This document shows positions 143 to 63,926 of a stretch of 64,000 nt of DNA, piece by piece (the first letter of the stretch is position 1; every line of letters begins with the position of its first letter). The stretch is from NCBI GenBank assembly GCA_002688315.1, contig NZCN01000015.1, positions 2,137 through 66,136 on the forward strand, given 5' to 3'. The notes under the pieces were generated by a model. The model saw only the letters and a program-made list of their open reading frames with translations, did not search any database and was not told the origin of the DNA. The position numbers and the translations under genes are program-made. The DNA is from Candidatus Woesearchaeota archaeon (GTDB taxonomy: Archaea; Nanobdellota; Nanobdellia; Woesearchaeales; UBA10216).

Positions 143-227
143 GGGCCTGTGATCTAGTGGCTATGATGTCGCCTTTACACGGCGAATATCCCCAGTTCGA
201 ATTTTAGCGAAAGTCTGGGCAGGCCCA
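143..227 (+). tRNA. tRNA-Val(UAC) with a 12-nt T-loop intron (202..213, position 59/60)
   Basis: Hand-folded cloverleaf. Acceptor GGGCCTG/CAGGCCC, anticodon stem TCGCC/GGCGA, loop TTTACAC. T-stem CCCAG/CTGGG enclosing TTCGAA + ttttagcgaaag + T. Discriminator A, no encoded CCA. Confidence 0.85.
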
Positions 228-740: not shown

Positions 741-750
741 CTTTTATAAA
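741..750 (+). promoter_or_regulatory. TATA box (cttttataaa) for tRNA-Ile
   Basis: aaCTTTTATAAACGAAAT lies about 27-35 nt upstream of the tRNA 5' end. It is near-identical to the element upstream of srp54 (1321..1330). Confidence 0.45.
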
Positions 751-776: not shown

Positions 777-944
777 GGGCCCGTAGCTCAGCTTGGTTAG
801 ATGGTGTGATTACATCACACTAGACGAAAGCGCCAGTCTTATATGGCTACGCTTTAGGACAGCTGGATGTCGCCAGTTCAAACGAGAAATCGGAGATTTC
901 TGGTATCCCAGAACTCCGGTTCTGTGATAATCTGGTCGGGCCCA
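777..944 (+). tRNA. tRNA-Ile(UAU) carrying three introns: D-arm about 802..829, anticodon 844..860 (37/38), T-loop 883..930 (59/60)
   Basis: Exons assemble into a 75-nt cloverleaf. Acceptor GGGCCCG/CGGGCCC, D-arm GCTC-AGCTTGGTTA-GA|GC, anticodon stem CCAGT/GCTGG, loop CTTATA|A, variable ATGTC, T-arm GCCAG-TTCAAA|T-CTGGT, A73. The anticodon intron gives a 4-bp BHB central helix CTTA/TAGG. Confidence 0.75.
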
Positions 945-993
945 CCTTTTCTTAAACAAAAAATATTAAAAGAAGCATTGCTAAAGGAAACTT

Positions 994-3336: not shown

Positions 3337-3450
3337 GCCGGGATCGCATAATCTGGCATTGCGTAGCCCTGGAAACACGCATAGTCAGGCTATTTCCGTT
3401 GAGGATGTCTGGGTTCAAATTGCGAAAGCATGAAAGTCCCAGTCCCGGCG
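3337..3450 (+). tRNA. tRNA-Ser(GGA), class II, with two introns: anticodon 3375..3386 (37/38) and T-loop 3420..3436 (59/60)
   Basis: Acceptor GCCGGGA/TCCCGGC, G73, anticodon stem TAGCC/GGCTA, loop CTGGAA|A, long variable arm. T-arm CTGGG-TTCAAA|T-CCCAG. The T-loop intron contains a TGC-GAAA-GCA hairpin. Confidence 0.8.
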
Positions 3451-6745: not shown

Positions 6746-7411
6746 CTATTTCTTAAATTCTATTTTATCATCTAAGTAAATGCCTTGGTGGAGGGTTACT
6801 GGACGCCAACTGTCAATGATTAATTTTGCGTTCAACCATTCTGCAAGTTCTTCTGAATTGCCAATAGTTGCAGATAGTCCGATTAATTGCATTTGAGGCA
6901 GTAATTGCTTTAGAATCGTAATGAGAATCTCTAATGTAGGGCCTCTGCCAGGGTCGTTAAGAAGATGAATCTCATCAATAACAACCACTTTAACTGATTT
7001 TATCCATGGAGTGTGATGGCGGAGGAGAGAGTCTAATTTTTCTGAAGTCATAAACAGCAAATCATAATTTGCTAAGTAAGAATCTGAAGAATCTAAATCA
7101 CCTGTAGAAATTGCTATCTTAATCAGGTTGCCGTAACGCTGCTTGAAATCTTTGTATTTTTCAGCTGCTAACGCTTTTAATGGAACAATATAAATTGCCT
7201 TGCCTTTTCCGTTTAATATAGCAGATAATGCTGCTAATTCAGCTATTAAAGTTTTGCCAGAAGCAGTTGGAGTGCAAACCAGCAAGTTTTTTTCTTCCAA
7301 AAGGCCTGCTTTTACTGACTTAACTTGAGCAGGACGCAATTCAGCTATGTTAGATGCTACAATAGTGTAAAGCTGCTGCGGTAACTTGTCTTTTAACTCT
7401 GTAACGTTCAT
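6746..7411 (-). CDS. Hel308/Ski2-like helicase, RecA1 domain only (truncated or split gene)
   Basis: Q-motif/motif I (RPAQ...TPTASGKT), Ia, II (DEIH) and III (SAT) are present. The ORF stops right after RPVTLHQGIY, at the RecA1/RecA2 boundary. No RecA2 or later domains lie downstream in any frame. Confidence 0.8.
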   Translation of the reverse strand: MNVTELKDKLPQQLYTIVASNIAELRPAQVKSVKAGLLEEKNLLVCTPTASGKTLIAELAALSAILNGKGKAIYIVPLKALAAEKYKDFKQRYGNLIKIAISTGDLDSSDSYLANYDLLFMTSEKLDSLLRHHTPWIKSVKVVVIDEIHLLNDPGRGPTLEILITILKQLLPQMQLIGLSATIGNSEELAEWLNAKLIIDSWRPVTLHQGIYLDDKIEFKK

Positions 7412-25774: not shown

Positions 25775-26296
25775 ATGGCTGAAAAAACTTACAACATACC
25801 TCTGAGAAAGGAAATAATGAAAGTCCAAAGGTACAAAAGAGCGAAAAAAGCAGTTAGTTCTGTACGGGCTTATGTTATCAAGCATTCAAAATCATCCGAC
25901 GTGAAAATTGGAAAATATCTTAACCTTAAATTATGGGAGCATGGAATAAAAAACGTTCCCCACATGGTAAAAGTGGACATAACAAAAGACAACAAAGGAA
26001 CTGTTACTGCAGAACTTTTCGGAGCACCAAAAGAAGTGAAGAAAGAAGAGCCAAAGAAGCCTGAAACAGCAGTGGACAAGGTAAAAGCAGCAGTTGCAGG
26101 AAAAAAAGAAGAAAAAGAAAAGAAAACAGAAGTAAAAGCAGATGTTAAAAAAGAAGAAACAACTGAGAAAAAAGAAACTGAAACTAAAAAAGAAGAAAAA
26201 GTAACTGAACCAAAGAAAGAAAGTAGTAGTAGCGAAGAAAAAGTTATTGCAACAACTGATTCTAAAAGCAATAGCAGCAATAACGAAAAAAAGTAG
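25775..26296 (+). CDS. rpl31e: ribosomal protein L31e with long Lys/Glu-rich C-terminal tail
   Basis: Contains YNIPLRK...RYKRAKKAVSSVRAYVIKH...LNLKLWEHGIKNVP, followed by a low-complexity KE tail. Confidence 0.9.
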   Translation: MAEKTYNIPLRKEIMKVQRYKRAKKAVSSVRAYVIKHSKSSDVKIGKYLNLKLWEHGIKNVPHMVKVDITKDNKGTVTAELFGAPKEVKKEEPKKPETAVDKVKAAVAGKKEEKEKKTEVKADVKKEETTEKKETETKKEEKVTEPKKESSSSEEKVIATTDSKSNSSNNEKK

Positions 26297-26365
26297 TAAA
26301 GTTCTTTAACTAATCTTTATTTTCTAGTTATATGAAAACCTTATTGCCTTTTGAAAAGTTTGAGA

Positions 26366-27814
26366 TCAAAACTTTTCTAAGTTTGTAATTAATTTAAGAA
26401 AATCTTTCCCTTCTTTACTGATAGATATAAGAAAAGGATTTCTATTTATACCTAAACCCTCTATTTTGATATATGTTTTGTACTGCTTTTTTCTTAATGT
26501 ATCTAAAATGGAGTCCTCTCTAATTTTTAATAACATAGATAATTTTTTCACAGTTATACGATGATTTTTATTTATAACTGACAAATATTTAATCATAGTT
26601 TTTGTAAAACTGTGGTTCAAGAAACCTTCAAATGCTCTCTTTCTTCTTACACTATGGGTTCTAAAAGGAACTACTTCATTAAATAGAAAGGTTTTGAAGA
26701 AAGAATATAAGTTAGTCCATCCTTCAATTACAAAAGTTTTTGATTGTTGATCTTTGCATAATTCTACTATGCCAGTCTGACGCAATATTTTTTCAAAAAG
26801 CGTTTTCTCTTGCATATTGTAGCTGAGAGTTATTTTATGAAGACCTTTCTTACCAATCTGCGCACCGCCTTCTGCAGCTAATAAACCATTTAACGCGTGA
26901 AAAGCATTTTGTTTCTCCATGTTATTTTTTATTTTTTCAAAAACGTATCTGAAAATTAAAGAGACAATTGTTTTATCCATCACAATTCGCAAATTACCTG
27001 CAGGACTAGTTCTTAATATGCACTTAGAGTTTGAGTAGAATTGCTGTTCGTTTAAACATACTGCATTCTTCCAATATTCTTTTGCATAGAGACCATGTCT
27101 TAAATCATGCAATAAAATCCTCGATCTCCACACAGCTTTTGGTAATCGGAATATTTTCTCAAACTCATCAATCACAAACACATGGAGCTCTGGTAATTTA
27201 TTAGCAAAATATAGTTTATACGCGTAGTGTCCATCCCCATGGACTAAAAAGAATAACTCAATCAAATTTGAAGATAACTGAATAAATCTTGGAATTGTAA
27301 TAGGTTCTTTTTGTTTACGATAAATAGTAATATAGTTTTTAGCTCTAGGAATAATTTTGACATTTTTGTCGTAATGTACTATTTGTGCCAAGTCTATCTG
27401 TTGGTAACTTTCTGGAAGACATTTATCTCTTGCTATAATCTTTACAAAAATATTTTCGTTATTCTGTATGTTGAGTTTATCAACAATGATTTGGGGAATA
27501 TGTAGCTTTCTCCATTTATACATTTTAGTTACAAATTCAACTTCTTGATTTTCTCTACAAATCCTAACAAGCAGCACATCAGTTTCTTTTATCCCTTCCG
27601 ATTTCCTAGATTCTGCAGGATAAGTAATAAATGGACGACCGGTCCCCATTCTAAGAGGAGATTTAAATTCACACATAGGTCTTTCCTGTTTGTATAATCT
27701 GGCAAAGTCAACAGGATGGGCAATTTCTTTATAGTAAACTCTTTTGTCCTCTATATCTGCGTAAAATAGACTTCCTCTTTGTTTTGTTAAAGCTTGGTTA
27801 ATAATTGTTTTCAT
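26366..27814 (-). CDS. free-standing LAGLIDADG-like protein with extra N- and C-terminal (wHTH-like) regions
   Basis: Two candidate LAGLIDADG motifs, ELFFLVHGDGHY and LNGLLAAEGGAQ, lie about 130 aa apart. The SD-like GAGGT lies 5 nt upstream of the ATG. The motifs are divergent. Confidence 0.55.
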   Translation of the reverse strand: MKTIINQALTKQRGSLFYADIEDKRVYYKEIAHPVDFARLYKQERPMCEFKSPLRMGTGRPFITYPAESRKSEGIKETDVLLVRICRENQEVEFVTKMYKWRKLHIPQIIVDKLNIQNNENIFVKIIARDKCLPESYQQIDLAQIVHYDKNVKIIPRAKNYITIYRKQKEPITIPRFIQLSSNLIELFFLVHGDGHYAYKLYFANKLPELHVFVIDEFEKIFRLPKAVWRSRILLHDLRHGLYAKEYWKNAVCLNEQQFYSNSKCILRTSPAGNLRIVMDKTIVSLIFRYVFEKIKNNMEKQNAFHALNGLLAAEGGAQIGKKGLHKITLSYNMQEKTLFEKILRQTGIVELCKDQQSKTFVIEGWTNLYSFFKTFLFNEVVPFRTHSVRRKRAFEGFLNHSFTKTMIKYLSVINKNHRITVKKLSMLLKIREDSILDTLRKKQYKTYIKIEGLGINRNPFLISISKEGKDFLKLITNLEKF

Positions 27815-28097
27815 TTTTTACCTCTGGAAACCCCATCTAACGTGAGATTTCCTTCATTCAGTAAGGAAATCTCTTTTTGGAGTGAAGGGCATGTATAGCC
27901 AAGCTGCGTAAATGATTTTAGGCCGAAAAGCCGACCCTCGAAGAGGGGAAAATCATAATTTAGCAGCTCTGCGTGTGTCTTGAACTCACTTTAACACCAA
28001 TAGAACAATTACTTAATAAGGGCTACGCCTCCATGTCCAGTGGCCAATGGGAAATATTCTTAAAGGAAAGCTTAATCCAAAGGAGTGGAGGTGGGTG

Positions 28098-28329
28098 ATG
28101 AAAAAAAATTTATTACCATTCGAACGATTTGAAAGAGAAGTAATCATGAAAAAAGAAGCGGAAACTAGCAGCAGTTACGGTTGCAACCCTGACGAAAGAA
28201 GCGCTGACGAGCTAATTAATTTTGGCATCATAAACCTTGACAAACCTTCAGGACCAAGCTCACATCAAGTTTCTGCTTATATCAAACAAATTCTTGGCAT
28301 TAAAAAAGCCGGTCACTCTGGGACTCTAG
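28098..28329 (+). CDS. cbf5: tRNA/rRNA pseudouridine synthase Cbf5, exon 1 (ends in the first two bases of the catalytic Asp codon)
   Basis: Contains ...INLDKPSGPSSHQVSAYIKQILGIKKAGHSGTL. Start re-picked to ATG 28098, just after GGAGGTG. The unspliced frame runs into a stop at 28332. Confidence 0.85.
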
Positions 28330-28342
28330 AATAAAAGGAGAC
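28330..28342 (+). other. 13-nt BHB-type mini-intron in cbf5 (aataaaaggagac)
   Basis: Removal restores GTL-D-PKVTG and a 331-codon frame. The flanks form GGGA-CTCT / GGAG-aca-TCCC, with 3-nt bulges on opposite strands of a 4-bp helix. Both cuts fall after the second bulge nucleotide. Confidence 0.7.
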
Positions 28343-29103
28343 ATCCCAAAGTAACAGGAGTTCTGCCAGTAGCTTTAGGCAGAGCCACAAGAATAGTTCA
28401 AGTGCTTCTTACAGCAGGAAAAGAATACGTGTGCGTAATGCAGCTCCACAAAAACGTTGAAGAGGTAAAGCTTAGAAAAGTATGCGAAGAATTTGTTGGA
28501 AAAATAAAACAATTACCTCCTGTAAAAAGCGCTGTGGTAAGAAAACTTAGGGAAAGAACTATCTATTATATAGACATAATTGAAATCAGCGGAAAATACG
28601 TGCTGTTCAGAGTTGGTTGTGAAGCAGGAACATACATAAGAAAACTTGTTTCAGACATTGGAAGCAAAATAGGAGGAGCGCACATGCTTGAGTTAAGAAG
28701 AACCAAAGCAGGACCGTTCAAAGAAGAAGAAATTTTCACCTTACATGATGTCATGGACAGCTACCATTATTATAGAAAAGAATCAAACGAAAAATATTTG
28801 AGAAAAGTCATACTTCCAATAGAAGCAGCAGTTGCGCACCTTCCAAAAGTTTGGATTCTTGACGGAGCAGTTGATAGTGTCTGCCATGGAATGAGCTTAA
28901 AAATGCCTGGCATAAGCAAATTTGAAAACCACATAAGAAAAAAAGATATTGTAGCAATTATGACGCTGAAAAACGAGCTTGTTTGCTACGGGATAGCAAC
29001 TGTCGACTCGAAAAAAATGCAGACAGGAAGAACAGGAGTAACTGTAAAACCAGACGCTGTTTTTATGAAGATAGGAACTTATCCTTCTAAGAAACATGAA
29101 TAA
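28343..29103 (+). CDS. cbf5: Cbf5, exon 2 (TruB core continuation and PUA domain)
   Basis: (D)PKVTGVLPVALGRATRIVQVLLTAGKEYVCVMQLH...AGTYIRKLVSDIG...LPKVWILDGAVDSVCHG... matches archaeal Cbf5 along its whole length. Confidence 0.9.
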
Positions 29104-29113
29104 ACTTATTTTA

Positions 29114-29407
29114 CTAATCCACAGTAAACAAATTAGAACTGCTATCAACTTTGAAAAGTCCTGCTCTTGCCCCTGCATCTAACCAAGCATGAGCGTAACT
29201 TGCAGCTGCCAATGCAGTCAGCAAATCGCCTTTTTTCCGGAAATGTTTAGCGTCGGAAAGATAATTCTTAGCCATAGAAAGAAAATCCTGTGCAACCTCT
29301 TGCTTGACAGACGGAAGCTCAACTAAAGTGATTGCTTTCTCTGTCATTGCAAAGTATTTGTCCAGCTTTTTGTTTATTTCTTCTTCTGATATTGACATAG
29401 AAATCAT
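29114..29407 (-). CDS. DUF357-like small helical protein
   Basis: The 97-aa ORF has ...GDLLTALAAASYAHAWLDAGARAGL, a motif I associate with the archaeal DUF357 family. This identification is from memory. Confidence 0.55.
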   Translation of the reverse strand: MISMSISEEEINKKLDKYFAMTEKAITLVELPSVKQEVAQDFLSMAKNYLSDAKHFRKKGDLLTALAAASYAHAWLDAGARAGLFKVDSSSNLFTVD

Positions 29408-29430
29408 GAATAAACTGTTGTTTTTAAGGG

Positions 29431-29877
29431 TTATGCACTTTCAGGCGGAGGTACGTATTTATACCCTAAGCCATATCTATTAATTATAAGTTGAGGATTG
29501 CTTGGATCTGATTCAAGTTTCAATCTTACGTTTTTCGCATGCGTGGCCAAAGCTTGTCTATCTCTTAGATTAAAAAGAGGAATACTTGTAATAGCTTCAT
29601 AGCATTCTCCTTGCGAGAAAAATATGCCAGGGTTTGATACTAATGTTGATAAAAAACGATATTCAGATGGAGTAAGTCCAACAGGTTCTCCTCGCACACT
29701 TATGGTTACTGATTCTTCATACATAGTTATTTCTGGATCTGAATAAAAAGGAATAACTCCATTTTCAGGAGCAACTTCAGCTATTAAAACATCTTCCAAA
29801 TCAGTACCTTTTACTGTTTTCAAAACTGCATCAACCTGTTCTTGCGTTCCAAAAAAATACATTGGTTTTTTAGACAT
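29431..29877 (-). CDS. protein with C-terminal OmpR/PhoB-type winged-helix DNA-binding domain
   Basis: LTPSEYRFLSTLVSNPGIFFSQGECYEAI...HAKNVRLKLE...NRYGLGYKY follows the trans_reg_C pattern. The N-terminal half is not receiver-like. Confidence 0.6.
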   Translation of the reverse strand: MSKKPMYFFGTQEQVDAVLKTVKGTDLEDVLIAEVAPENGVIPFYSDPEITMYEESVTISVRGEPVGLTPSEYRFLSTLVSNPGIFFSQGECYEAITSIPLFNLRDRQALATHAKNVRLKLESDPSNPQLIINRYGLGYKYVPPPESA

Positions 29878-29911
29878 TATGAATTTTGGAACTTTCCATC
29901 CATTTATAAGG

Positions 29912-30643
29912 TTAATTGTGCCAGTTTATTTTATTCAAAACCCAGTCAGAAACAAGATTTATTAATTGCTCGAAATGATTTGCATCAGAATAACGGTGGT
30001 CAGCATCTTCAATTATTTCGAGCTTTTTTTCGCAATTTAAATGTTTGATTAATTCTTTGCTTTGCTCAACAGGAACATCAACATCATTACTTCCATGCAC
30101 GATAATTGTTGGAGTTTTTATTTTCTCAGCAGTTTTGTAGATGTCATACTTTGCAGAGTCGTCAAAAAACTGTTGTTGCTTGTTTCTTGCTACCAAAGGA
30201 ACTTCTTTTATTCCACTGTAATCAGATACAGGAGATTTCAATGCCAAAACTTTCAAATCTTTTTCAGCAGCAAATAAAACAGCAACAGAACCACTAAAAC
30301 TACTGCCTAACAAAGCAATTTTATTTTTATCAACATTTTCAATGTTTTTCACAAAATTAAATGCAGCGTTCAAATCATCAATACCTTGCGTTATTGTTAA
30401 TTGATAAAGTTCGCCTTCACTCTCACCGCAACCAGTAAAGTCAAATCCAAAAGAAGCAATTCCTTTTTCCAGCAATTGCCGGGATAATGCAGAACGTGTT
30501 TTACTTTTTGTATTGCTGGCATAGCCATGGCAAATAATCACGATAGGAAAATTTTCTGAATCTGGAATTGTAACGACGCCGTGCAGTTTTCTTCCTTTGC
30601 TGTTAGTAAACATTACATCTTTTTCCATTTTTGCATCAAACAA
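29912..30643 (-). CDS. alpha/beta hydrolase (S9/dienelactone hydrolase-like)
   Basis: Contains HGYAS, the nucleophile elbow LLGSSFSG, and a C-terminal DHRY. Confidence 0.8.
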   Translation of the reverse strand: MFDAKMEKDVMFTNSKGRKLHGVVTIPDSENFPIVIICHGYASNTKSKTRSALSRQLLEKGIASFGFDFTGCGESEGELYQLTITQGIDDLNAAFNFVKNIENVDKNKIALLGSSFSGSVAVLFAAEKDLKVLALKSPVSDYSGIKEVPLVARNKQQQFFDDSAKYDIYKTAEKIKTPTIIVHGSNDVDVPVEQSKELIKHLNCEKKLEIIEDADHRYSDANHFEQLINLVSDWVLNKINWHN

Positions 30644-30878
30644 AAGTTATTTTTCCTTTTTTATTAATCAGCACTGTAACTTTAAAATCTAATTCTCCGT
30701 TGTAAAATCTTATTTTTTTCTTAAATGTTTTTTTATTTTTAATTATAGTTGCTTTAAACCCGAGCTTTAAAAAATATTCTTTCAAATCCAAAGCAATTAT
30801 TTTTCGCATAAGCAAAAAATCATTCTTATATTTATCAAAATCAAGAATTCTGTTGTTGACAACGATAAATCGTTCCAT
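30636..30878 (-). CDS. hypothetical protein (80 aa)
   Basis: The ORF overlaps the hydrolase start by 8 nt. No motif recognised. Confidence 0.4.
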   Translation of the reverse strand: MERFIVVNNRILDFDKYKNDFLLMRKIIALDLKEYFLKLGFKATIIKNKKTFKKKIRFYNGELDFKVTVLINKKGKITFV

Positions 30879-30891
30879 TTTTAATCATAAA

Positions 30892-30967
30892 GGCGCCTGA
30901 GTTTCAGGCGCCAAACGTCAGAAGCTTTAGCTTCTGATCGTGATCAGAAACGCTTTAGCGTTTCTGA
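30892..30967. repeat. three consecutive perfect stem-loops / palindromes
   Basis: GGCGCCTGA-gtt-TCAGGCGCC (30892..30912), TCAGAAGC-ttta-GCTTCTGA (30918..30937) and TCAGAAACGC-ttta-GCGTTTCTGA (30944..30967). They are separated by 5 and 6 nt. Confidence 0.75.
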
Positions 30968-31049
30968 CATGCCAAGGGAATGTGCAAAAATTTTATAAAC
31001 TATTATCAATCAAATAACTAATTCGACGAGGGATGATTGTGCTAGGCTT

Positions 31050-31118
31050 TGTGAGCCAGTCAGGGGACTCGACCCCCTGCTCGGGTTGTCAACTCTTTGC
31101 TCCATCCATTGAGCTACG
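31050..31118 (-). pseudogene. tRNA-like fragment (D-arm and T-arm recognisable, no foldable acceptor or anticodon stem)
   Basis: The minus strand reads TA-GCTC-AATGGATG-GAGC-A-AAGAG-TTGACAA... then AGGGG-GTCGAGT-CCCCT. The 5' AAGAG has no partner, and the 7 nt before TA do not pair with the 3' end. Confidence 0.4.
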
Positions 31119-31150
31119 TTTTCTTTATTTTTCATTTTCTTTGATTTTAA

Positions 31151-31255
31151 TGGCGCCGCGGCTGGGGTTTTCGCCCAGAGATGAGTATCGAACCCAGATG
31201 CCTTCCCAGGCAGAGTGGTATCAACACTCCACGCTTCCAATTGCGCGTCCGCGGC
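31151..31255 (-). tRNA. class-II tRNA (long variable arm, G73, encoded CCA) with anticodon GAU and a 19-nt T-loop intron (31168..31186)
   Basis: Acceptor GCCGCGG/CCGCGGC, D-arm GCGC-AATTGGAA-GCGT. Perfect anticodon stem GAGTG/CACTC with loop TTGATAC (anticodon 31220..31222). Variable arm TGCC-TGGGAA-GGCA, T-arm CTGGG-TTCGAT|C-CCCAG with BHB central helix TTCG/CGAA, then G-CCA. Confidence 0.6.
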
Positions 31256-31295
31256 ATAAAAAGCTTTAAATATCTGTTATTCCCTCTCTTTTGTT

Positions 31296-31325
31296 GGTAT
31301 CAACACTCTGCGCTCCTAATTGCGC
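31296..31325 (-). pseudogene. partial copy of the preceding tRNA (D-arm to anticodon loop only)
   Basis: The minus strand GCGC-AATTAGGA-GCGC-A-GAGTG-TTGATAC-CA parallels 31217..31246. It lacks an acceptor strand and a 3' half. The flank ttcattttcttt is also repeated near 31125. Confidence 0.5.
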
Positions 31326-31494
31326 ATTTTTTCTTTTCATTTTCTTTTAACAGAAGTAGTGGTTTAAATACCCTATCCGTGCATGTCCAGTGCTAATGGT
31401 CAAAAGGGCTGAAAGCCCAATTTTTAGAGGTTTCAGGGCTTGAAAGCTTATTGCGCAAATCTTCCGGATTGTCCAGTGGTTTATTCGGAATTAT

Positions 31495-33285
31495 CTAAGA
31501 ATATTGTTTAACTTTTTGAGTATAAACATTATTTTCTGGTTGTAAAGAAGATGCTGTCAGGAAGTTTTGTCTTGCTTTGGTTGTTTCTTCAAGAGCTTCG
31601 TATATAATACCTAGATTGTAGTAAGCTTCATGGTTCCATGGGTTTAATTGAATGGATCTTTCAAACAAAGAAATAGCAACTGTTAAATTTCCTTGCTGTG
31701 CATAAACAATTCCTAAATCACTGTACGATTTATAATATCTTGGTTCGACTATTATCGCTTTTTCAAAACTTTGCTTAGCTTGATCAGAAAAAAAATCTCT
31801 TTGCTCAGGTATTTCAAGAGAAGCATAATAATAAGTTAAACCTAACGAGTCGTATGCTTTAACATAGGACGGGTTGTTGTTGATTGCTGAAATAAACGCA
31901 TCAGTTGCTTTGCCATAATTTTTTTGTTTCATATAAACAATACCCAGGTTATAATGAGCTTTTTCGTTTAAAGGGTCAAGAGAAACAGCAGTTGATAATG
32001 CTGATTTAGAGTCAACTAAACGGTTATTTTGTTCATAGGCAAATCCCAAGTTGCTCCATACAACAGATGTTTTTGAAGATGTTTTAGAAGTTTCCTCCCA
32101 TAAAGTTAAATCATTTTTCCAGTCAGCATTTCTGTCAATAGTAATAAAAAGAAAAGATGTTATAACCGCAACAGACAGTAATAAAGATACAGTTTTCTTT
32201 TTTGGAATTTTAAAGAAAAAGTAAGAGAATAAAATTGCCGAGCTAACAGAAGGAAGATATAAGTAACGGTCTGCCATAAGAGTTTGAAGCGGAAGAATAT
32301 TTGAGAAAGGCAAAAACGTAATGAAAAACCAGCCAATTGAAAAAGCAAGCAGCTTATTTCTTTTATAATATTTTATCGCGATGAAAGAAACCGCCAATAT
32401 AACCAGCAGCGAGAAAATAACCATTGGGTCAAAAAGAGATGTGCTTGTTTTTATTTCCCGGTAAAGCGTTAACGGATAAGGAATAAAAATAAGGTAAAAA
32501 TAGTAAAAAACAATTTTAATCATAGTTAGAAAAGTAGTAAAGAAACTGCCGGTTACGTATTCATTTGTTCTTGCACCAAGACCTATTACAATAAATCTAA
32601 AATAAACAAAGATAGCAGTAACTGCAAAAAATGAAGCAAGCCTGTAAATTTGTTTCTTATGCTTTTCAAAATCAAATGTTAAATTATTGAATACTATTTC
32701 ATACAATAACAAAAGGGGCGGTAAAATAAAAGCTTCTTCTGAAGAAAATAATGCTGCTATGAATGACATTACTGACACAATCAAATAACCTTTTTTTTGA
32801 TTTTGTCTGTAAAGAATGTAAAGATAAAATGAAAGCAAAATTAACGCTATTCCAAGCAAATCAAATCCGCCAGTCATGTTAGTTACACGTTCTGTATGGA
32901 TGGGATGGACAGCAAATATTGATGCTGCAACTACTGGAATAAATTTGTGGCTTGTTAATCTAGTCAAAATCAGCAGAACAAGTATTGAATTTAAAGTATG
33001 CCAAAGTAAACTGTTTAGATGGTAACCAAACTTGTTATCTCCCCAAACAGAATAAGTGAATGCGTACAGCGTTGTTCGCAAAGGTCTATAAAGGCCATCG
33101 GTAGTATCGAAGAAAAAAACAGGGATATTATTTAGGGAACGAATGCCTATGTTTTCCTGAATAAATTTTTTGTCATCCCATACAAAATCGTTAGTGAAAG
33201 AGTTAGCATAAGTAACTGCTGAAAACAAAGTCACTATAAGAATAAAAAATAGTTTTTGTTGCATCTGCAATAAGAAAAAGCCCAT
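31495..33285 (-). CDS. polytopic membrane protein (GT-C/PMT-like) with C-terminal TPR repeats
   Basis: There are about 11 TM segments. After them come at least five TPR-like units (AHYNLGIVYMKQKNYGKA..., AYYNLGIIYEALEE...). Confidence 0.8.
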   Translation of the reverse strand: MGFFLLQMQQKLFFILIVTLFSAVTYANSFTNDFVWDDKKFIQENIGIRSLNNIPVFFFDTTDGLYRPLRTTLYAFTYSVWGDNKFGYHLNSLLWHTLNSILVLLILTRLTSHKFIPVVAASIFAVHPIHTERVTNMTGGFDLLGIALILLSFYLYILYRQNQKKGYLIVSVMSFIAALFSSEEAFILPPLLLLYEIVFNNLTFDFEKHKKQIYRLASFFAVTAIFVYFRFIVIGLGARTNEYVTGSFFTTFLTMIKIVFYYFYLIFIPYPLTLYREIKTSTSLFDPMVIFSLLVILAVSFIAIKYYKRNKLLAFSIGWFFITFLPFSNILPLQTLMADRYLYLPSVSSAILFSYFFFKIPKKKTVSLLLSVAVITSFLFITIDRNADWKNDLTLWEETSKTSSKTSVVWSNLGFAYEQNNRLVDSKSALSTAVSLDPLNEKAHYNLGIVYMKQKNYGKATDAFISAINNNPSYVKAYDSLGLTYYYASLEIPEQRDFFSDQAKQSFEKAIIVEPRYYKSYSDLGIVYAQQGNLTVAISLFERSIQLNPWNHEAYYNLGIIYEALEETTKARQNFLTASSLQPENNVYTQKVKQYS

Positions 33286-45308: not shown

Positions 45309-45387
45309 TAGCAAATCACCTCAAAAATAATTCTAAGAATTAGATTTTATAAAGTTTGTGTTGAAGTTGAAAATCTCATTCCACTGC

Positions 45388-45466
45388 TGTTCTTTTTTCC
45401 TTTTCCTTTTTATCTCTCTTTCTAAATTTTAAGGGAGAGATAAAAGAGAAAGAAGGCGAAAACGAG
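45388..45466 (-). terminator. long imperfect hairpin (pyrimidine arm / purine arm) directly after lysA
   Basis: The core is TTATCTCTC (45410..45418) / GAGAGATAA (45435..45443). Imperfect arms extend it to about 30 nt each. It starts 2 nt after the lysA stop. Confidence 0.35.
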
Positions 45467-45468
45467 AC

Positions 45469-46701
45469 TTAGTTATCTTCCTGCATCAAATCATGAATCT
45501 TCTCAGCCGGCCTAATAACGCTCATTTTCTTTCCAGAAACAAGAATTTCTGCAGGTCTTGGATGCATGTTATAGTTAGAAGACATTGAATAGCCATAAGC
45601 GCCTGCCATCATTATAGCAAGAACATCATTGTTTTTAACAGAAGGCAATTCTCTGTCTTTAATACCCTGTTTAGAAGCTGTAAACAAATCTGCTGAGTCA
45701 CTTAAATTGCCTGAAACAACAATCTTTTCTTTATTTTTGCTTTCAACATTGTTTATGTTAACAATAGGATGATAAGAACCGTAAAGAGCCGGCCTTAACA
45801 AATGATTAAATCCTGTATTAACGCTTACAAAAGTGTGCTTAGGTGTCGTCTTAACAGCGTTCACAGAACACAATAACACCCCTGATTCTGCAACCAAGTA
45901 ACGTCCTGGCTCAAAAACAAACAGCAAATCTTTGCCATAATTAATCGCAAATCGTTTAAGGATAGAAGAGATTTTTTCCCCTAATTTATTAATGTCCAAA
46001 GGAGTTTGGTCAGGAAGGTAAGGAACACCTATGCCCCCTCCAAAATTAATGAAATCAAGGTTCTTGAAGCTTTTTGCAACTGCCAGCAGAACATCAATAG
46101 AGTTTATGTAATCTTTAGCATCTAAAAGTTCAGTGCCTACATTGTGATGCAATCCCACGATATTGAGATTGTAAGCGTCTGCAGCTGAAATTGCCTGGTC
46201 CAAATTTCCCGCCCAGATTCCAAATTGAGTGTCAGGGCCGCTTAAAACATGCTTGCTTGACTTAACTGCGTGATTAATCCTTATAGAAACATTTGAGCGT
46301 GGATTCAACTTGCCATATCTTTCCAGCTGTGAAACAGAATCAATATTTATCAAAATTTTCTTGCTAATAGCAAATTTCATTTCCTGATTAGTAAGAGAAG
46401 GAGATGCAAGCATTATTTGATTTGGCTTAAAGCCAGCATTTAAAGCAACAAGAATCTCACCTATAGAAGCAGCTGATATTCCTGCTTTTTCTTCACGAAG
46501 AATTTGAAGAATTTTTTTATTAGCATTTGCTTTAGCAGCATAAAAAATCTTAAGTTTAGGATAAGAAATGCTTTCAGCCAATTCACGGTACTTATAGCGA
46601 ATTACATCTTCATCATAAACATAAACAGGAGTGCCAAACTTCTTAACAACGTCAGAAGCAGGTATTTCTCCAACATAAAGTTTGTTTTCAATGATATTCA
46701 T
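45469..46701 (-). CDS. lysA: diaminopimelate decarboxylase (PLP-dependent Orn/DAP/Arg decarboxylase family)
   Basis: Contains YAAKANAN (PLP Lys), GGGIGVPY, EPGRYLVAESG and GAYGYSMSSNYN. Substrate assignment is by family resemblance only. Confidence 0.8.
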   Translation of the reverse strand: MNIIENKLYVGEIPASDVVKKFGTPVYVYDEDVIRYKYRELAESISYPKLKIFYAAKANANKKILQILREEKAGISAASIGEILVALNAGFKPNQIMLASPSLTNQEMKFAISKKILINIDSVSQLERYGKLNPRSNVSIRINHAVKSSKHVLSGPDTQFGIWAGNLDQAISAADAYNLNIVGLHHNVGTELLDAKDYINSIDVLLAVAKSFKNLDFINFGGGIGVPYLPDQTPLDINKLGEKISSILKRFAINYGKDLLFVFEPGRYLVAESGVLLCSVNAVKTTPKHTFVSVNTGFNHLLRPALYGSYHPIVNINNVESKNKEKIVVSGNLSDSADLFTASKQGIKDRELPSVKNNDVLAIMMAGAYGYSMSSNYNMHPRPAEILVSGKKMSVIRPAEKIHDLMQEDN

Positions 46702-60414: not shown

Positions 60415-63030
60415 TTAAGCAGCCTTTGCTTTTTCCTCTATTCTTTCCATTATTCGTGCATGCATTCTCTTAAGGAATTCTATCTTATCTTCTATCTTGA
60501 GAACATCTGTGTGGGATTCCAAAACTATTTTGAATGCGAATGGGGAAGGCAGGTCTGTCTGGACATTTTTTATCTTTATCTTCCTGTCTTCAATGGCTTT
60601 AAGCAAGTTTTTTGTAGTAGGCATATCCATTAAATCCTCCAAAACTTCACGCCTTGCTTCTTTGAGAATACAAAAATCAGGAGAAACTCTCTTAACAGCA
60701 TTTATTAAAATCATTGAAGAAACTTGTTGTCTACCAACACGTTTTCGCCTTCCTTTATAGTTTCTAAGAATCATCAAAGAACGAGCAGCGCAATGGCGGA
60801 ATCGCCTTTTCAGTATTTCAGTTTTTTCAATAGCATTATTCATTAGCAACTCCATTTTTTCTGATTTAATCAGCTTAAGAGCCGCAGAAACATTGACGTT
60901 TTTTTCATAAGAAACGTAAAAGCCATTATCAGTTATTCCTAGCTCAACATCTTTGCGTTGTGAGCGTGCTATTACAAAAGCAACAGCTCTGCTAAGTGCA
61001 TCATTAACGCGCCTGCCATAAAGAGAATGCACAACAACGTGTTTCCGCCCTCTGTCAGTAAAGTTTTCAATTATTATTTTTTTATCAGTAGGTATTTCTG
61101 CATAAAGATATTGCTCACGCAAATAGTTATAGATTGAACTAGCAGTGTTCTTGTCAACGTAAAGATAATCATTAATGAACTTTAAGACTTCTTTCTTTGT
61201 TTTGTTATGGTTGAATTTTTCCTCCATCAAACGCCTGAATTTGCCAATCTCTAACGCCAAGTCAAAACTTAACGGAAGCATTTCAGAAAACCATGAAGGG
61301 ATAGTAGGAGCCCTGTAAACACTTGCATTAACATAAGCAACCATTCCTTTAGCGTAAAGAAATTCGTATTTATCACCGCCAAGAACAAAAACATCAGTTT
61401 TTCTTAATCGTTCAAGGAACGACTCATCAATCTTCCCTACAACATGATCTGTACCTGCAATCTTTACAGAAACAAAAGTTTCATCAGGAATTGTGCCTAT
61501 ATTAGTCATGTAAATAACACGGCTCATGCGACCTTTTCTGCCAATTAGTCCTGTTTCTTCATCAACCCAAATTTTTGCATAGATATGCCGGTCTTCAAGA
61601 GAAATGTGCTTGCCGCTCAGGTAATCCAAAACTTCATTGAAATCTTTTAATGTTAAGTCTTTATAGCAGTAACTTTTTTTAATCACATTGTATAAGTCAG
61701 TCTTGTGAACTTTAGAAGCTATTGCAATTCCATAAATTTGTTGAGCTAAAACATCCAAAGCATTTTCTGGTATATGAATACGATCAATCTTTTTTTCAAT
61801 AGCAGATTTCAAAAGAACAGAGCATTCAATCATATCATCCCTATCAAGAACAATAATCCTGCCTTTTGAAACAGAATGTAATTTGTGACCGCTTCTTCCA
61901 ATACGCTGTAAAGCGCGCGCAACAGATTTAGGACTGCCTAGAAGAATCACTAAATCAATATAGCCAATATCAATGCCCAGTTCAAGGCTTGTAGAGCTTA
62001 CAACAACCTTTAATTTTCCTTCTCTTAGCCTCTTTTCAATACTATGACGATATTCTTTTGAAAGAGAACCATGATGAGCGCCGATAGTAGGATCATCAGA
62101 AGCGTAACGTTTTGGAAATTTTTCTTTCAAATGGTGTATAACACGCTCAGTAGCAGCTCTGGTATTTGTGAAAATAAGAGTTGTTTTATGAGTTTGGATT
62201 AAATCATCAATCAAAGAATACATTGAATCCTGCATTTTACCATGCTCAACATTAATCAAATCAGGAACAGGAGACAAAACTTTCAAATCCGTTTTCTTAA
62301 CAAACTGAACATTGCAAATCTTGCAGTTTCTTGGCACTTCATTTTCATTTCCAACAAGAAAATGTGCAATTTTATCCAAAGGCGCTATGGTTGCTGACAA
62401 ACCAATTCTAGTCATTGCAGGAGAAAGATGTTGAAGACGCTCCAAGCTAAGAGAAAGATGCACTCCACGTTTGTTTTCTGCCAAAGCATGCACTTCATCA
62501 ACAATACACCATTCTACTGCCTGAAGCAAATCTATGAAACGATAACTGCTCAGAACAATTGCAAGACTTTCAGGAGTTGTTATGAGAATGTGTGGAGGTT
62601 TTTTCAGCATCTTTGATTTTTCAGAAGCTGACGTATCACCAGTTCTAACAGCAACTCTGATTCCAAGTTTTTTGCCAGCTATTTTTTCCATTTCTTTCAA
62701 AGGTTCAATCAAGTTGAGTTGCACATCGTTGCTGAGCGCTTTCAAAGGCGAGATATATATACAATAAACTTTATCTTCAAGTATGTCGCTTTCTGAAGCA
62801 TTTATAAGCTCATTAAGAATTGAAAGAAATCCAGTAAGAGTTTTTGTTGCACCAGTAGGAGCAGAAACTAAAATATTATTTCTGCTGTGAATCTCCATAA
62901 CTCCAAATAATTGAGGAAGACTAAATTCTTTAAACTTAGAGAAAAACCATTTTTTAATAAGAGGGTTTAATATGTTGCGCAATTCTTGCGGTTTATTAGA
63001 ATTTAATTTGTATTCTATCATCACTACCAA
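60415..63030 (-). CDS. lhr: Lhr-type large DEAD/DEAH-box helicase
   Basis: Contains SAPTGATKTL, DEVH, SAT and QRIGRSGH, followed by the Lhr-specific winged-helix / domain 4 region (DEAD_assoc-like). Confidence 0.92.
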   Translation of the reverse strand: MVVMIEYKLNSNKPQELRNILNPLIKKWFFSKFKEFSLPQLFGVMEIHSRNNILVSAPTGATKTLTGFLSILNELINASESDILEDKVYCIYISPLKALSNDVQLNLIEPLKEMEKIAGKKLGIRVAVRTGDTSASEKSKMLKKPPHILITTPESLAIVLSSYRFIDLLQAVEWCIVDEVHALAENKRGVHLSLSLERLQHLSPAMTRIGLSATIAPLDKIAHFLVGNENEVPRNCKICNVQFVKKTDLKVLSPVPDLINVEHGKMQDSMYSLIDDLIQTHKTTLIFTNTRAATERVIHHLKEKFPKRYASDDPTIGAHHGSLSKEYRHSIEKRLREGKLKVVVSSTSLELGIDIGYIDLVILLGSPKSVARALQRIGRSGHKLHSVSKGRIIVLDRDDMIECSVLLKSAIEKKIDRIHIPENALDVLAQQIYGIAIASKVHKTDLYNVIKKSYCYKDLTLKDFNEVLDYLSGKHISLEDRHIYAKIWVDEETGLIGRKGRMSRVIYMTNIGTIPDETFVSVKIAGTDHVVGKIDESFLERLRKTDVFVLGGDKYEFLYAKGMVAYVNASVYRAPTIPSWFSEMLPLSFDLALEIGKFRRLMEEKFNHNKTKKEVLKFINDYLYVDKNTASSIYNYLREQYLYAEIPTDKKIIIENFTDRGRKHVVVHSLYGRRVNDALSRAVAFVIARSQRKDVELGITDNGFYVSYEKNVNVSAALKLIKSEKMELLMNNAIEKTEILKRRFRHCAARSLMILRNYKGRRKRVGRQQVSSMILINAVKRVSPDFCILKEARREVLEDLMDMPTTKNLLKAIEDRKIKIKNVQTDLPSPFAFKIVLESHTDVLKIEDKIEFLKRMHARIMERIEEKAKAA

Positions 63031-63926
63031 CCCAGCTTATAAGTGTTAACTAATTTGTACATTTTCCTCTTAATTGTGAAACCAATCATGTCTTTAAATA
63101 ACTTGAGATTCTCTTTTCGATTAATATATAATTTCGGATATTTTTTCTGTTGAAACTTATTCTCTATGCCTAGTTTACTAAGCAGTTTAGATACGTCAAT
63201 CAACCCTTTGCGACTACCTGAAAGAATCATTACATAATACTTGCTAACCCAACCATCACTATCGTATAGCCCTTTCAAAAAAGTAGAAATTATTTTCTTG
63301 TTATTTGAATTTAGAATTTCTTGTGGTACGCGCCAAGTCATAGTTCTAAAAGTTCCGTAGCGTAACAAATCTTTTGAAAGCAACATTGCAGAAACTTTGA
63401 ATAAAAAAGTGTTCCTATTAGTCTTGTAAACATAAATGTATTTAATCCCGTACACAGCTTCCATACATCGTGTGAATTCTTTAATAAATTCTTCATCCTT
63501 TCTTATTTCGAGTGCGATAACTTTATTGTTAATGTAACCATCTCCAGCAAGGACCCCTAAGATATATGCTTTTTCTAAAGTCAAATTTTTATATTTTTTC
63601 AGAGGCCTTTTTAATTTTAAATTAGCTAATTCTTTCTTAATTTGCGGAGTGTTCATGGATTCTTTATGCGTTCTTACTTTAATTCCATAGGATCGAAGCC
63701 AGTTTATAACTATAATCGTAGAAACTTTAGATTTAAGACCGATATCACTTGCGCTTAGTTTTTGCTTTACGTAAAGATCGTACAAAGTCTTCTTTTCTAA
63801 TTTAGGTTTAGTTTTAAATTGCGTTCTTTCTTGATTATAAGGAATATTGTGATGATGTATCCAGCCAGAAATAGTTGCTTCAGAAATGGTTATTCCAAAC
63901 TTTTTATTAATTTCTTTTCTTATCAA
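63024..63926 (-). CDS. free-standing double-motif LAGLIDADG endonuclease-like protein with N-terminal HTH region
   Basis: The motifs are YILGVLAGDGY and FLKGLYDSDGW, about 95 aa apart. Its stop overlaps the lhr start by 7 nt. The TTG start in the track is uncertain, and the N terminus may lie near the window edge. Confidence 0.8.
   Translation of the reverse strand: MIRKEINKKFGITISEATISGWIHHHNIPYNQERTQFKTKPKLEKKTLYDLYVKQKLSASDIGLKSKVSTIIVINWLRSYGIKVRTHKESMNTPQIKKELANLKLKRPLKKYKNLTLEKAYILGVLAGDGYINNKVIALEIRKDEEFIKEFTRCMEAVYGIKYIYVYKTNRNTFLFKVSAMLLSKDLLRYGTFRTMTWRVPQEILNSNNKKIISTFLKGLYDSDGWVSKYYVMILSGSRKGLIDVSKLLSKLGIENKFQQKKYPKLYINRKENLKLFKDMIGFTIKRKMYKLVNTYKLGW

Follow-up and report, generated by a model that had tools for sequence, protein, structure and literature searches.

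The 64,000-nucleotide stretch of contig NZCN01000015.1 analysed here (positions 2,137 to 66,136 of the forward strand, as a whole called the window) carries on its plus strand, at positions 777–944, a locus of 168 nucleotides (nt) that, judged from its sequence, is a true gene for tRNA-Ile(UAU) interrupted by three introns. The letters read back from the sequence were those given in a preliminary description of the stretch. After in-silico splicing, exon 1 (777–800) holds G1 to G22, with the 5' strand of the acceptor stem, U8 and A9, the 5' strand of the D-stem, the D-loop and G22, and is followed by intron 1 (801–828, 28 nt) at position 22/23. Exon 2 (829–843) runs from A23 to A37 and contains the 3' strand of the D-stem, G26, the 5' strand of the anticodon stem, C32 and U33, the anticodon U34-A35-U36 at 840–842 and finally A37; intron 2 (844–860, 17 nt) then interrupts the anticodon loop at the canonical position 37/38. 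Exon 3 (861–882, A38 to A59) provides the 3' strand of the anticodon stem, the variable loop AUGUC, the 5' strand of the T-stem and U54 to A59, and is separated by intron 3 (883–930, 48 nt) at position 59/60 from exon 4 (931–944, U60 to A73), which supplies the 3' strands of T-stem and acceptor stem and the discriminator A73, the CCA end not being encoded. Intron 2 was placed with ARAGORN and a table of bulge-helix-bulge (BHB) motifs, introns 1 and 3 with the same table and with folds.

The preliminary description had cut the locus into exons 777–801, 830–843, 861–882 and 931–944 with inserts at 802–829, 844–860 and 883–930, and had stated that more than half of the primary transcript is intron, which agrees with the 93 of 168 nt (55%) that the 28, 17 and 48 nt of the inserts add up to. 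The joined exons give a 75-nt product that ARAGORN calls as tRNA-Ile(tat) and that forms a perfect cloverleaf with all four stems paired (7, 4, 5 and 5 bp in the acceptor, D-, anticodon and T-stem), U8, a GG pair of letters in the D-loop, the T-loop TTCAAAT, A37 and A73. The G+C content of these exons is 57%, compared to 36–37% in the window and genome, and the predicted exon junctions are GGUUAG↓AGCGCC, CUUAUA↓AGCUGG and UUCAAA↓UCUGGU (arrows mark junctions or cuts throughout).

For the assignment of the splice sites we used the rule that each cut falls after the second nucleotide of a 3-nt bulge, the two bulges lying a 4-bp helix H apart, with the helix h on the outer and the helix h' on the inner side. 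Intron 2 fits this canonical hBHBh' motif closely: h is the anticodon stem (5 bp), H pairs C838–A841 with U855–G858 (4 bp, CUUA/UAGG), the bulges are U842 A843↓U844 and A859 C860↓A861, and only h' is reduced to two G-U pairs; the motif is near-canonical. ARAGORN places the same site, since it found the 17-nt intron after A37 by itself when only inserts 1 and 3 had been removed, and the BHB table confirms the previously proposed pairing of C32-U33-U34-A35 with UAGG and the bulges UA↓U and AC↓A. Intron 1 can be placed in two registers with an identical product, at 801–828 (22/23) or at 802–829 (23/24), of which 22/23 is favoured because the BHB geometry then has a clean 3-nt 5' bulge, A21 G22↓A23. 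The 28-nt insert in the 3' strand of the D-stem has thus been retained from the preliminary description and its position moved from 23/24 to 22/23. Its H consists of G796–U798 with G823–C825 (3 bp), its 5' bulge is A799 G800↓A801 and its h' is the hairpin that had been noticed before as 7 bp (GTGTGAT/ATCACAC) and that extends to 9 bp, 802–810 with 814–822. This is a relaxed HBh' form, imperfect yet inside the published relaxed classes. The same holds for intron 3, whose motif is near-canonical and imperfect. Here h is the T-stem (5 bp), H pairs U878–A880 with U925–A927 (3 bp, U55-C56-A57/UGA), the bulges are A881 A882↓C883 on the 5' and A929 A930↓U931 on the 3' side, and three equivalent placements of the intron lead to the identical product. 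The acceptor stem and all three motifs are compatible within one nested structure of -50.2 kcal/mol.

In order to compare the gene with its relatives we scanned one genome per species for a pattern made of the acceptor stem and the 5' strand of the D-stem, 10–40 nt, and then GCGCCNNNCTTATA. This revealed 58 loci with a tRNA-Ile(UAU) 5' half of the window type, all of them in DPANN-type metagenome-assembled genomes (MAGs) labelled as Woesearchaeota, Aenigmatarchaeota, Micrarchaeota and Nanoarchaeota or belonging to some mislabelled bins. The H+-pyrophosphatase of the window is 82–84% identical to proteins of Woesearchaeota MAGs, and the gene order pyrophosphatase, split DEAD helicase, FtsY, prefoldin, phosphoribosyl pyrophosphate (PRPP) synthase and SRP54 is one that the window and these MAGs have in common. 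Contig Ga0211525_10000626 of JGI metagenome 3300020423 matches 5.7 kb of the window (25938–31603) with 100% identity. All 58 related loci carry the 37/38 intron, which the search pattern did not demand, and no orthologue free of intron 2 was seen among them. In every tRNA-Ile(UAU) gene recovered (L001–L058, L064, L065 and L069) the 3' part of this intron pairs with C32–A35, and near-identical 17-nt introns are present in L027, L032 and L057.

The other two introns come and go between relatives. L027, which lies on the same Woesearchaeota contig as the 82% pyrophosphatase match, carries an insert of 28 nt at the corresponding point of the D-arm and the 17-nt anticodon-loop intron with one difference, and it is free of intron 3, its T-arm being contiguous (GCCAGTTCAAATCTGGT). 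L032 and L057 are free of intron 1: their D-arm is contiguous (GGTTAGAGCGCCAG), as is the exon 1 junction GGTTAGAGCGCC, and they possess the 17-nt intron together with 15 or 13 nt inserted at the site in the T-loop. The downstream flank of L057 is shared with the window. As each predicted exon junction is present as contiguous DNA in some relative, this pattern of presence and absence confirms the junctions one by one, and together with the ARAGORN cloverleaf after splicing it bears out the proposed tRNA-Ile gene, its UAU anticodon, and how many introns it has, how long they are and where they lie.

Conservation of the motifs can be followed at both non-canonical sites. The site and the GAC-N-AAA tail of intron 1 recur in 10 other loci, and ten distinct sequences share the scheme AGA-hairpin-GAC-N-AAA-GCG, with a hairpin sequence that differs in nearly all of them. 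In these ten sequences all five outer pairs of h' show compensatory changes and 98% of the cells are paired, compared to 18–47% in controls with the partner slid by 1–3 columns. An insert after TTCRAA was found in about 26 distinct sequences including the tRNA-Val and tRNA-Ser of the window; the T-loop helix H, formed by the four intron nucleotides preceding the last two and U54-U55-C56-R57, is paired in 92% of the cells of these 26 sequences, and its pair at position 57 varies between A-U, G-U and G-C. The exons, the junctions, the motifs and the conservation of the motifs are direct observations. As no close homologue of the 48-nt intron was found in a metagenome scan for similar T-arms with a 20–50-nt insert (8 loci found), its inner hairpin is predicted from folding, without comparative support in the collections scanned. 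Introns of 29–35 nt at 59/60 were also seen in the T-loop of other metagenome tRNAs (L062/L066 and L063, L067, L068), which have the anticodon UAC (Val) or CAU (Met or Ile2) and in both cases the acceptor stem GGGCCCG. The 59/60 site is not specific to tRNA-Ile.

Among the loci fetched, three introns are nothing unusual for this tRNA. L065/L043 show the identical layout of 22/23, 37/38 and 59/60, L011 and L041 combine 22/23, 37/38 and 43/44, L017 a D-loop site with 37/38 and 43/44, and L026 37/38, 43/44 and 59/60, all validated by ARAGORN after in-silico splicing, so that three-intron tRNA-Ile(UAU) genes occur in at least five related genomes. Beyond 37/38, inserts were found at 15/16, about 20/21, 22/23, 43/44, 59/60 and other T-arm sites, with 1–4 per gene, and two to four introns are common for tRNA-Ile(UAU) in DPANN archaea of the window type. 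The preliminary description had called three-intron tRNAs rare. This is right for archaea at large but overstated for this clade, because three-intron versions are not unusual among the loci fetched, including the identical layout of L065/L043, and because disruption of tRNA genes in DPANN archaea has been published. With the 59 related genes assembled, the gains and losses of introns at fixed positions of one tRNA can be followed in a compact set of sequences.

We are highly confident that 777–944 is a functional tRNA-Ile(UAU) gene, the decoder of AUA, with three BHB-type introns at 22/23, 37/38 and 59/60 in a marine Woesearchaeota-type DPANN archaeon. Several points weigh against this. ARAGORN and the Rfam tRNA model, the latter used with gathering and E-value thresholds, find the same four tRNA genes in the window, and neither of them reports anything for the unspliced 777–944, be it in the whole window or in the 241-nt locus alone with relaxed thresholds. 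The 3' site of intron 1 lies in AA↓A (827, 828↓829), two nucleotides past H, with the closing helix absent; the H of intron 3 contains a U877-U928 mismatch (U54-U), and its h', a long irregular hairpin at 885–923, begins only past a G884-G924 mismatch. The BHB-competent fold of -50.2 kcal/mol is not the computed minimum-energy fold of the pre-tRNA, which has -68.6 kcal/mol (z = -4.9 against shuffles). No EndA or RtcB gene is present in the 64-kb window, the statement that the locus is the only Ile-type tRNA with an AUA-matching anticodon applies to this window only, and the 75-nt mature species and its junctions are predictions from the DNA. The missing call of the unspliced locus is not counter-evidence to a gene, because it is expected with three inserts. 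According to the preliminary description, failure of covariance-model tools to recover a tRNA here would overturn the claim; Rfam, like ARAGORN, indeed recovers none from the unspliced letters, and ARAGORN recovers it once the inserts are removed.

The silence of the standard tools, the two imperfect motifs out of three and the 48-nt T-loop insert without a close homologue elsewhere would also fit a decaying pseudogene that has suffered three insertions and is not processed to a functional tRNA. We consider this very improbable, as the exons are intact, match those of the orthologues and show zero stem-breaking changes, every insert sits exactly where a BHB-type motif sets the cut sites, and the same insert sites with compensatory changes recur in many genomes; moreover, AUA is heavily used as an Ile codon and the window offers no second Ile-type decoder for it. 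A real gene with at least one different junction, for example with intron 1 at 23/24 or with intron 2 one nucleotide later so that U38 would replace A38, is hardly more probable. Inserts 1 and 3 can be placed otherwise (two and three registers, respectively), and a shift of intron 2 by one nucleotide would still give a 7-nt anticodon loop. The alternatives for introns 1 and 3 however yield the same mature RNA, so that nothing functional is changed, and for intron 2 both the BHB rule with NN↓N in both bulges and ARAGORN point to 37/38, and in every relative parsed the exon of the spliced gene resumes with A38.

With three deletions to be placed at will the freedom is considerable, and one could argue that any 168-nt stretch might be trimmed to a tRNA-like form. 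As a control with the same freedom we aligned the spliced tRNA-Ile(UAU) of L047 to both strands of the window, allowing up to 3 inserts at a per-nucleotide intron cost. This template is independent; as L047 has only the canonical intron, ARAGORN found it unaided, although the anticodon was called ambiguously. The locus that ends at position 944 scored 73, the next distinct loci were ordinary tRNAs with 35 and 20, and the background had a median of -12 and a 99th percentile of 11 (640 bins). The locus is an extreme outlier in this whole-window control, and since every junction is in addition confirmed by orthologues, chance is effectively refuted as an explanation and its probability negligible.

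The flanks of the tRNA-Ile(UAU) gene are in keeping with its expression. A TATA-box-like element TTTTATAA at 742–749 (plus strand), 28–35 nt upstream of tRNA position 1, is likely an archaeal promoter, and the A/T boxes AACTTTTATAAAC, AATTTTTTAAAC and AACTTTTAAATA are located at the same distance upstream of the orthologues in L022, L039, L048, L035, L010 and L016. The T-rich tract TTTTCTT at 947–953 (plus strand), directly after the gene, is likely a terminator, and T-runs also follow the orthologous genes. AUA amounts to 31.5 per 1000 codons in the window genes, which is about 40% of the Ile codons. In an alignment of the H+-pyrophosphatase with 60 homologues, 69% of the homologue residues at AUA positions are Ile, compared to 67–69% at AUU/AUC positions. 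AUA is thus common and aligned with Ile, and therefore a decoder for it is required, which makes the gene important for the cell. A reassignment of AUA was considered and rejected, as the AUA columns align with Ile in the homologues. Neither TiaS nor a tRNA-Ile(CAU) was seen in the 64-kb window, which is a small part of the genome. An annotation with ARAGORN and Rfam only would make the genome seem devoid of an AUA decoder, and its tRNA set would be scored as incomplete.

From the established archaeal route we infer how the transcript would be processed. Transcription from the A/T-box promoter would give a precursor of about 170 nt, in which EndA would cut each intron at two sites, two nucleotides into the 3-nt bulges that lie a 4-bp helix apart. 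The four exons would be joined by an RtcB-type ligase, RNase P and 3' trimming would finish the ends, and CCA would be added. Since introns 1 and 3 are relaxed or imperfect, the endonuclease of this organism would have to cope with motifs of this kind, and DPANN enzymes have been reported to do so. The EndA Pfam families gave no match in 60 window open reading frames (ORFs), those of SRP54, FtsY, prefoldin and PRPP synthase being outside the scan, and as there is no EndA gene in the window, the type of the endonuclease (alpha4, alpha2beta2 or epsilon2) cannot be read from it.

The tRNA-Ile gene is not the only disrupted one in the window. A tRNA-Val(UAC) at 143–227 (plus strand) has a 12-nt insert at 59/60 (202–213, TTTTAGCGAAAG) with the central helix UUCG/CGAA; removal of the insert gives an ARAGORN-valid 73-nt tRNA, and relatives have an uninterrupted tRNA-Val adjoining a tRNA-Gly. 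A tRNA-Ser(GGA) at 3337–3450 (plus strand) carries a 12-nt intron at 37/38 (3375–3386) and a 17-nt intron at 59/60 (3420–3436) and becomes ARAGORN-valid as well once its inserts are removed. Both genes were missed by ARAGORN and Rfam, so that all three intron-containing tRNA genes of the window escape ARAGORN and the Rfam tRNA model, and three of the seven tRNA genes of the window have an intron at 59/60.

A further type-II tRNA at 7707–7793 (plus strand; Rfam score 50 bits) also has the anticodon UAU. It resembles a tRNA-Ser: its variable arm is long, its discriminator is G73, and it shares its acceptor stem with the tRNA-Ser of the window. Its anticodon loop, however, reads CUUAUGA (UAU, G37). 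If charged with Ser it would mistranslate, because AUA means Ile in this genome. No homologue turned up in the syntenic regions of three relatives, one of which lacks the tRNA at the corresponding place, nor in 542 kb of fetched loci searched with nhmmer or in viral contigs. A tRNA-Leu(UAA) was rejected as its identity, the discriminator being G73 and not A73, and so was a hidden intron, as no removable segment gives a 7-nt loop with a Ser anticodon.

A similar interruption was found in a protein-coding gene. The cbf5 gene at 28098–29103 (plus strand) contains a 13-nt insert at 28330–28342, with a first ORF that ends in AGHSGTLE and a stop codon at 28334 and a second one that begins at 28402. 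Removal of the 13 nt restores GTLDPKVTG and a Cbf5 of 330 amino acids, the predicted junction being GGGACTCTAG joined to ATCCCAAAG. The insert is located between letters 1 and 2 of the codon that specifies the catalytic Asp (in GTL-D-P), the position to which a crenarchaeal cbf5 pre-mRNA intron has been assigned (PMC2738675). Its unconstrained fold shows a 5-bp outer helix, the bulge AC↓A, a 4-bp H (CUCU/GGAG) and a loop of 9 nt, which make up a bulge-helix-loop motif whose cuts would fall where they should. The same C-terminal fragment is present on thirteen contigs, with an identical insert in the one read back (L070). The other Cbf5 relatives are full-length in 119 of 119 cases among the matches listed, and in the two nearest of them (86% and 81% amino acid identity) GGAACACTCGATCCG is uninterrupted and spelled with synonymous codons, from which the outer helix would not arise. 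By its sequence the insert seems a candidate for a mini-intron in the mRNA of a DPANN archaeon; we found no published report linking cbf5 introns with DPANN. In the Crenarchaeota this position holds the one archaeal intron in a protein gene that is well known. If the insert is spliced, it would represent an independent, convergent gain of a cbf5 pre-mRNA intron outside the Crenarchaeota, and the endonuclease would also act on mRNA in DPANN. The 59/60 introns in three of seven tRNAs, the three-intron Ile decoder of AUA and the insert in the Asp codon of cbf5, which is missing from the closest relatives (81–86%), lead us to propose a marine Woesearchaeota-type lineage with an unusually permissive RNA-splicing system that seeded BHB introns widely, a proposal for which we see an even chance of being right.

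Three other features of the window may be mentioned. The ORF at 6746–7411 (minus strand) encodes 221 amino acids corresponding to the N-terminal half of a helicase (DEAD/ResIII); as syntenic ORFs of 221–222 amino acids exist in L060 and L061, it is a conserved split or truncated gene and not an error. An ORF of 300 amino acids with a LAGLIDADG_3 domain (63024–63926, minus strand) is the immediate upstream neighbour of an Lhr-type helicase gene (60415–63030), with a 7-nt overlap. The intergenic stretch that separates the lgt gene from the decarboxylase gene contains an A/T-rich, near-perfect long hairpin (45385–45472, plus strand; about -26 kcal/mol), which gave weak sub-threshold Rfam matches to miRNA-precursor models.

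The intron positions, tRNAs with several introns, tRNA-Ile(UAU) itself and the heavy disruption of tRNA genes in DPANN archaea are all already published, and the existing knowledge on how such introns work is unchanged by our finding. Eukaryotic tRNA-Ile(UAU) genes always carry an intron, which in yeast is needed for pseudouridine formation at positions 34 and 36. The archaeal genes share with them the UAU anticodon for AUA and an invariable 37/38 intron that pairs with the anticodon (58 of 58 loci), whereas the eukaryotic genes have a single intron and a different mode of recognition; an intron-dependent modification in DPANN would be pure speculation.

Among the archaea, 22/23 and 59/60 are documented intron sites and three-intron tRNA genes have been listed (PMC4090602), such as the tRNA-Pro(UGG) of Pyrobaculum islandicum, which is interrupted at 25/26, 37/38 and 56/57 (Sugahara et al. 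2007/2008, summarised in PMC4090602). Like these multi-intron tRNAs of the Thermoproteales, the gene described here combines one canonical with two non-canonical BHB-type introns in the D-arm and T-arm, the non-canonical ones with relaxed motifs. It differs from them in the tRNA species and the pair of non-canonical positions, and its host is a low-G+C marine DPANN archaeon instead of a hyperthermophilic crenarchaeon. The endonuclease probably belongs to another type as well, since DPANN are described without the crenarchaeal L1 loop (PMC5829648).

Closer by superphylum are the ARMAN archaea (Micrarchaeota), which have a tRNA-Ile(UAU) with a canonical intron and no TiaS, and for which the epsilon2 endonuclease of ARMAN-2 was found to cleave in vitro both the 37/38 intron of tRNA-Ile(UAU) and a 59/60 intron with a relaxed motif (Fujishima et al. 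2011, PMC3239211). The strict type of the canonical intron and a 59/60 site with a relaxed motif are thus common to both. In ARMAN, however, the introns are found in separate tRNAs, the one at 59/60 being 13 nt long and located in tRNA-Cys(GCA) (PMC3239211), whereas the window has three in one gene and a 59/60 intron of 48 nt with a long inner hairpin. Intron 1 can be compared with the pre-tRNA-Glu(UUC) of Methanopyrus kandleri, which has a canonical intron and, in its D-loop, an HBh' intron of relaxed form, a site that the M. kandleri enzyme cleaves poorly (Kaneta et al. 2018, PMC5829648). Both genes combine a canonical intron with a D-region intron whose 5' bulge, between H and h', is well formed and whose second bulge is ill-defined, and they differ in the tRNA, the position and the number of introns, two in M. 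kandleri compared to three in the window.

In the same report, DPANN archaea including a Woesearchaeota genome are said to possess an alpha4-type EndA with an extra L3 loop, and disrupted tRNA genes to be markedly increased in them (Kaneta et al. 2018, PMC5829648). Genes with multiple introns are scored there as one class in a figure, and the text consulted does not specifically describe the gene and lineage of the window. The motifs reported here, relaxed in the D-arm and imperfect in the T-loop, imply that the splicing endonuclease of this organism would accept BHB substrates that are not strict, in line with published proposals on DPANN enzymes, and they are concrete natural substrates for testing these proposals. 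The same report notes that DPANN tRNA sets are incompletely predicted owing to unidentified disrupted genes (PMC5829648), and the window presents exactly this situation, with disrupted tRNA genes that the tools leave unidentified.

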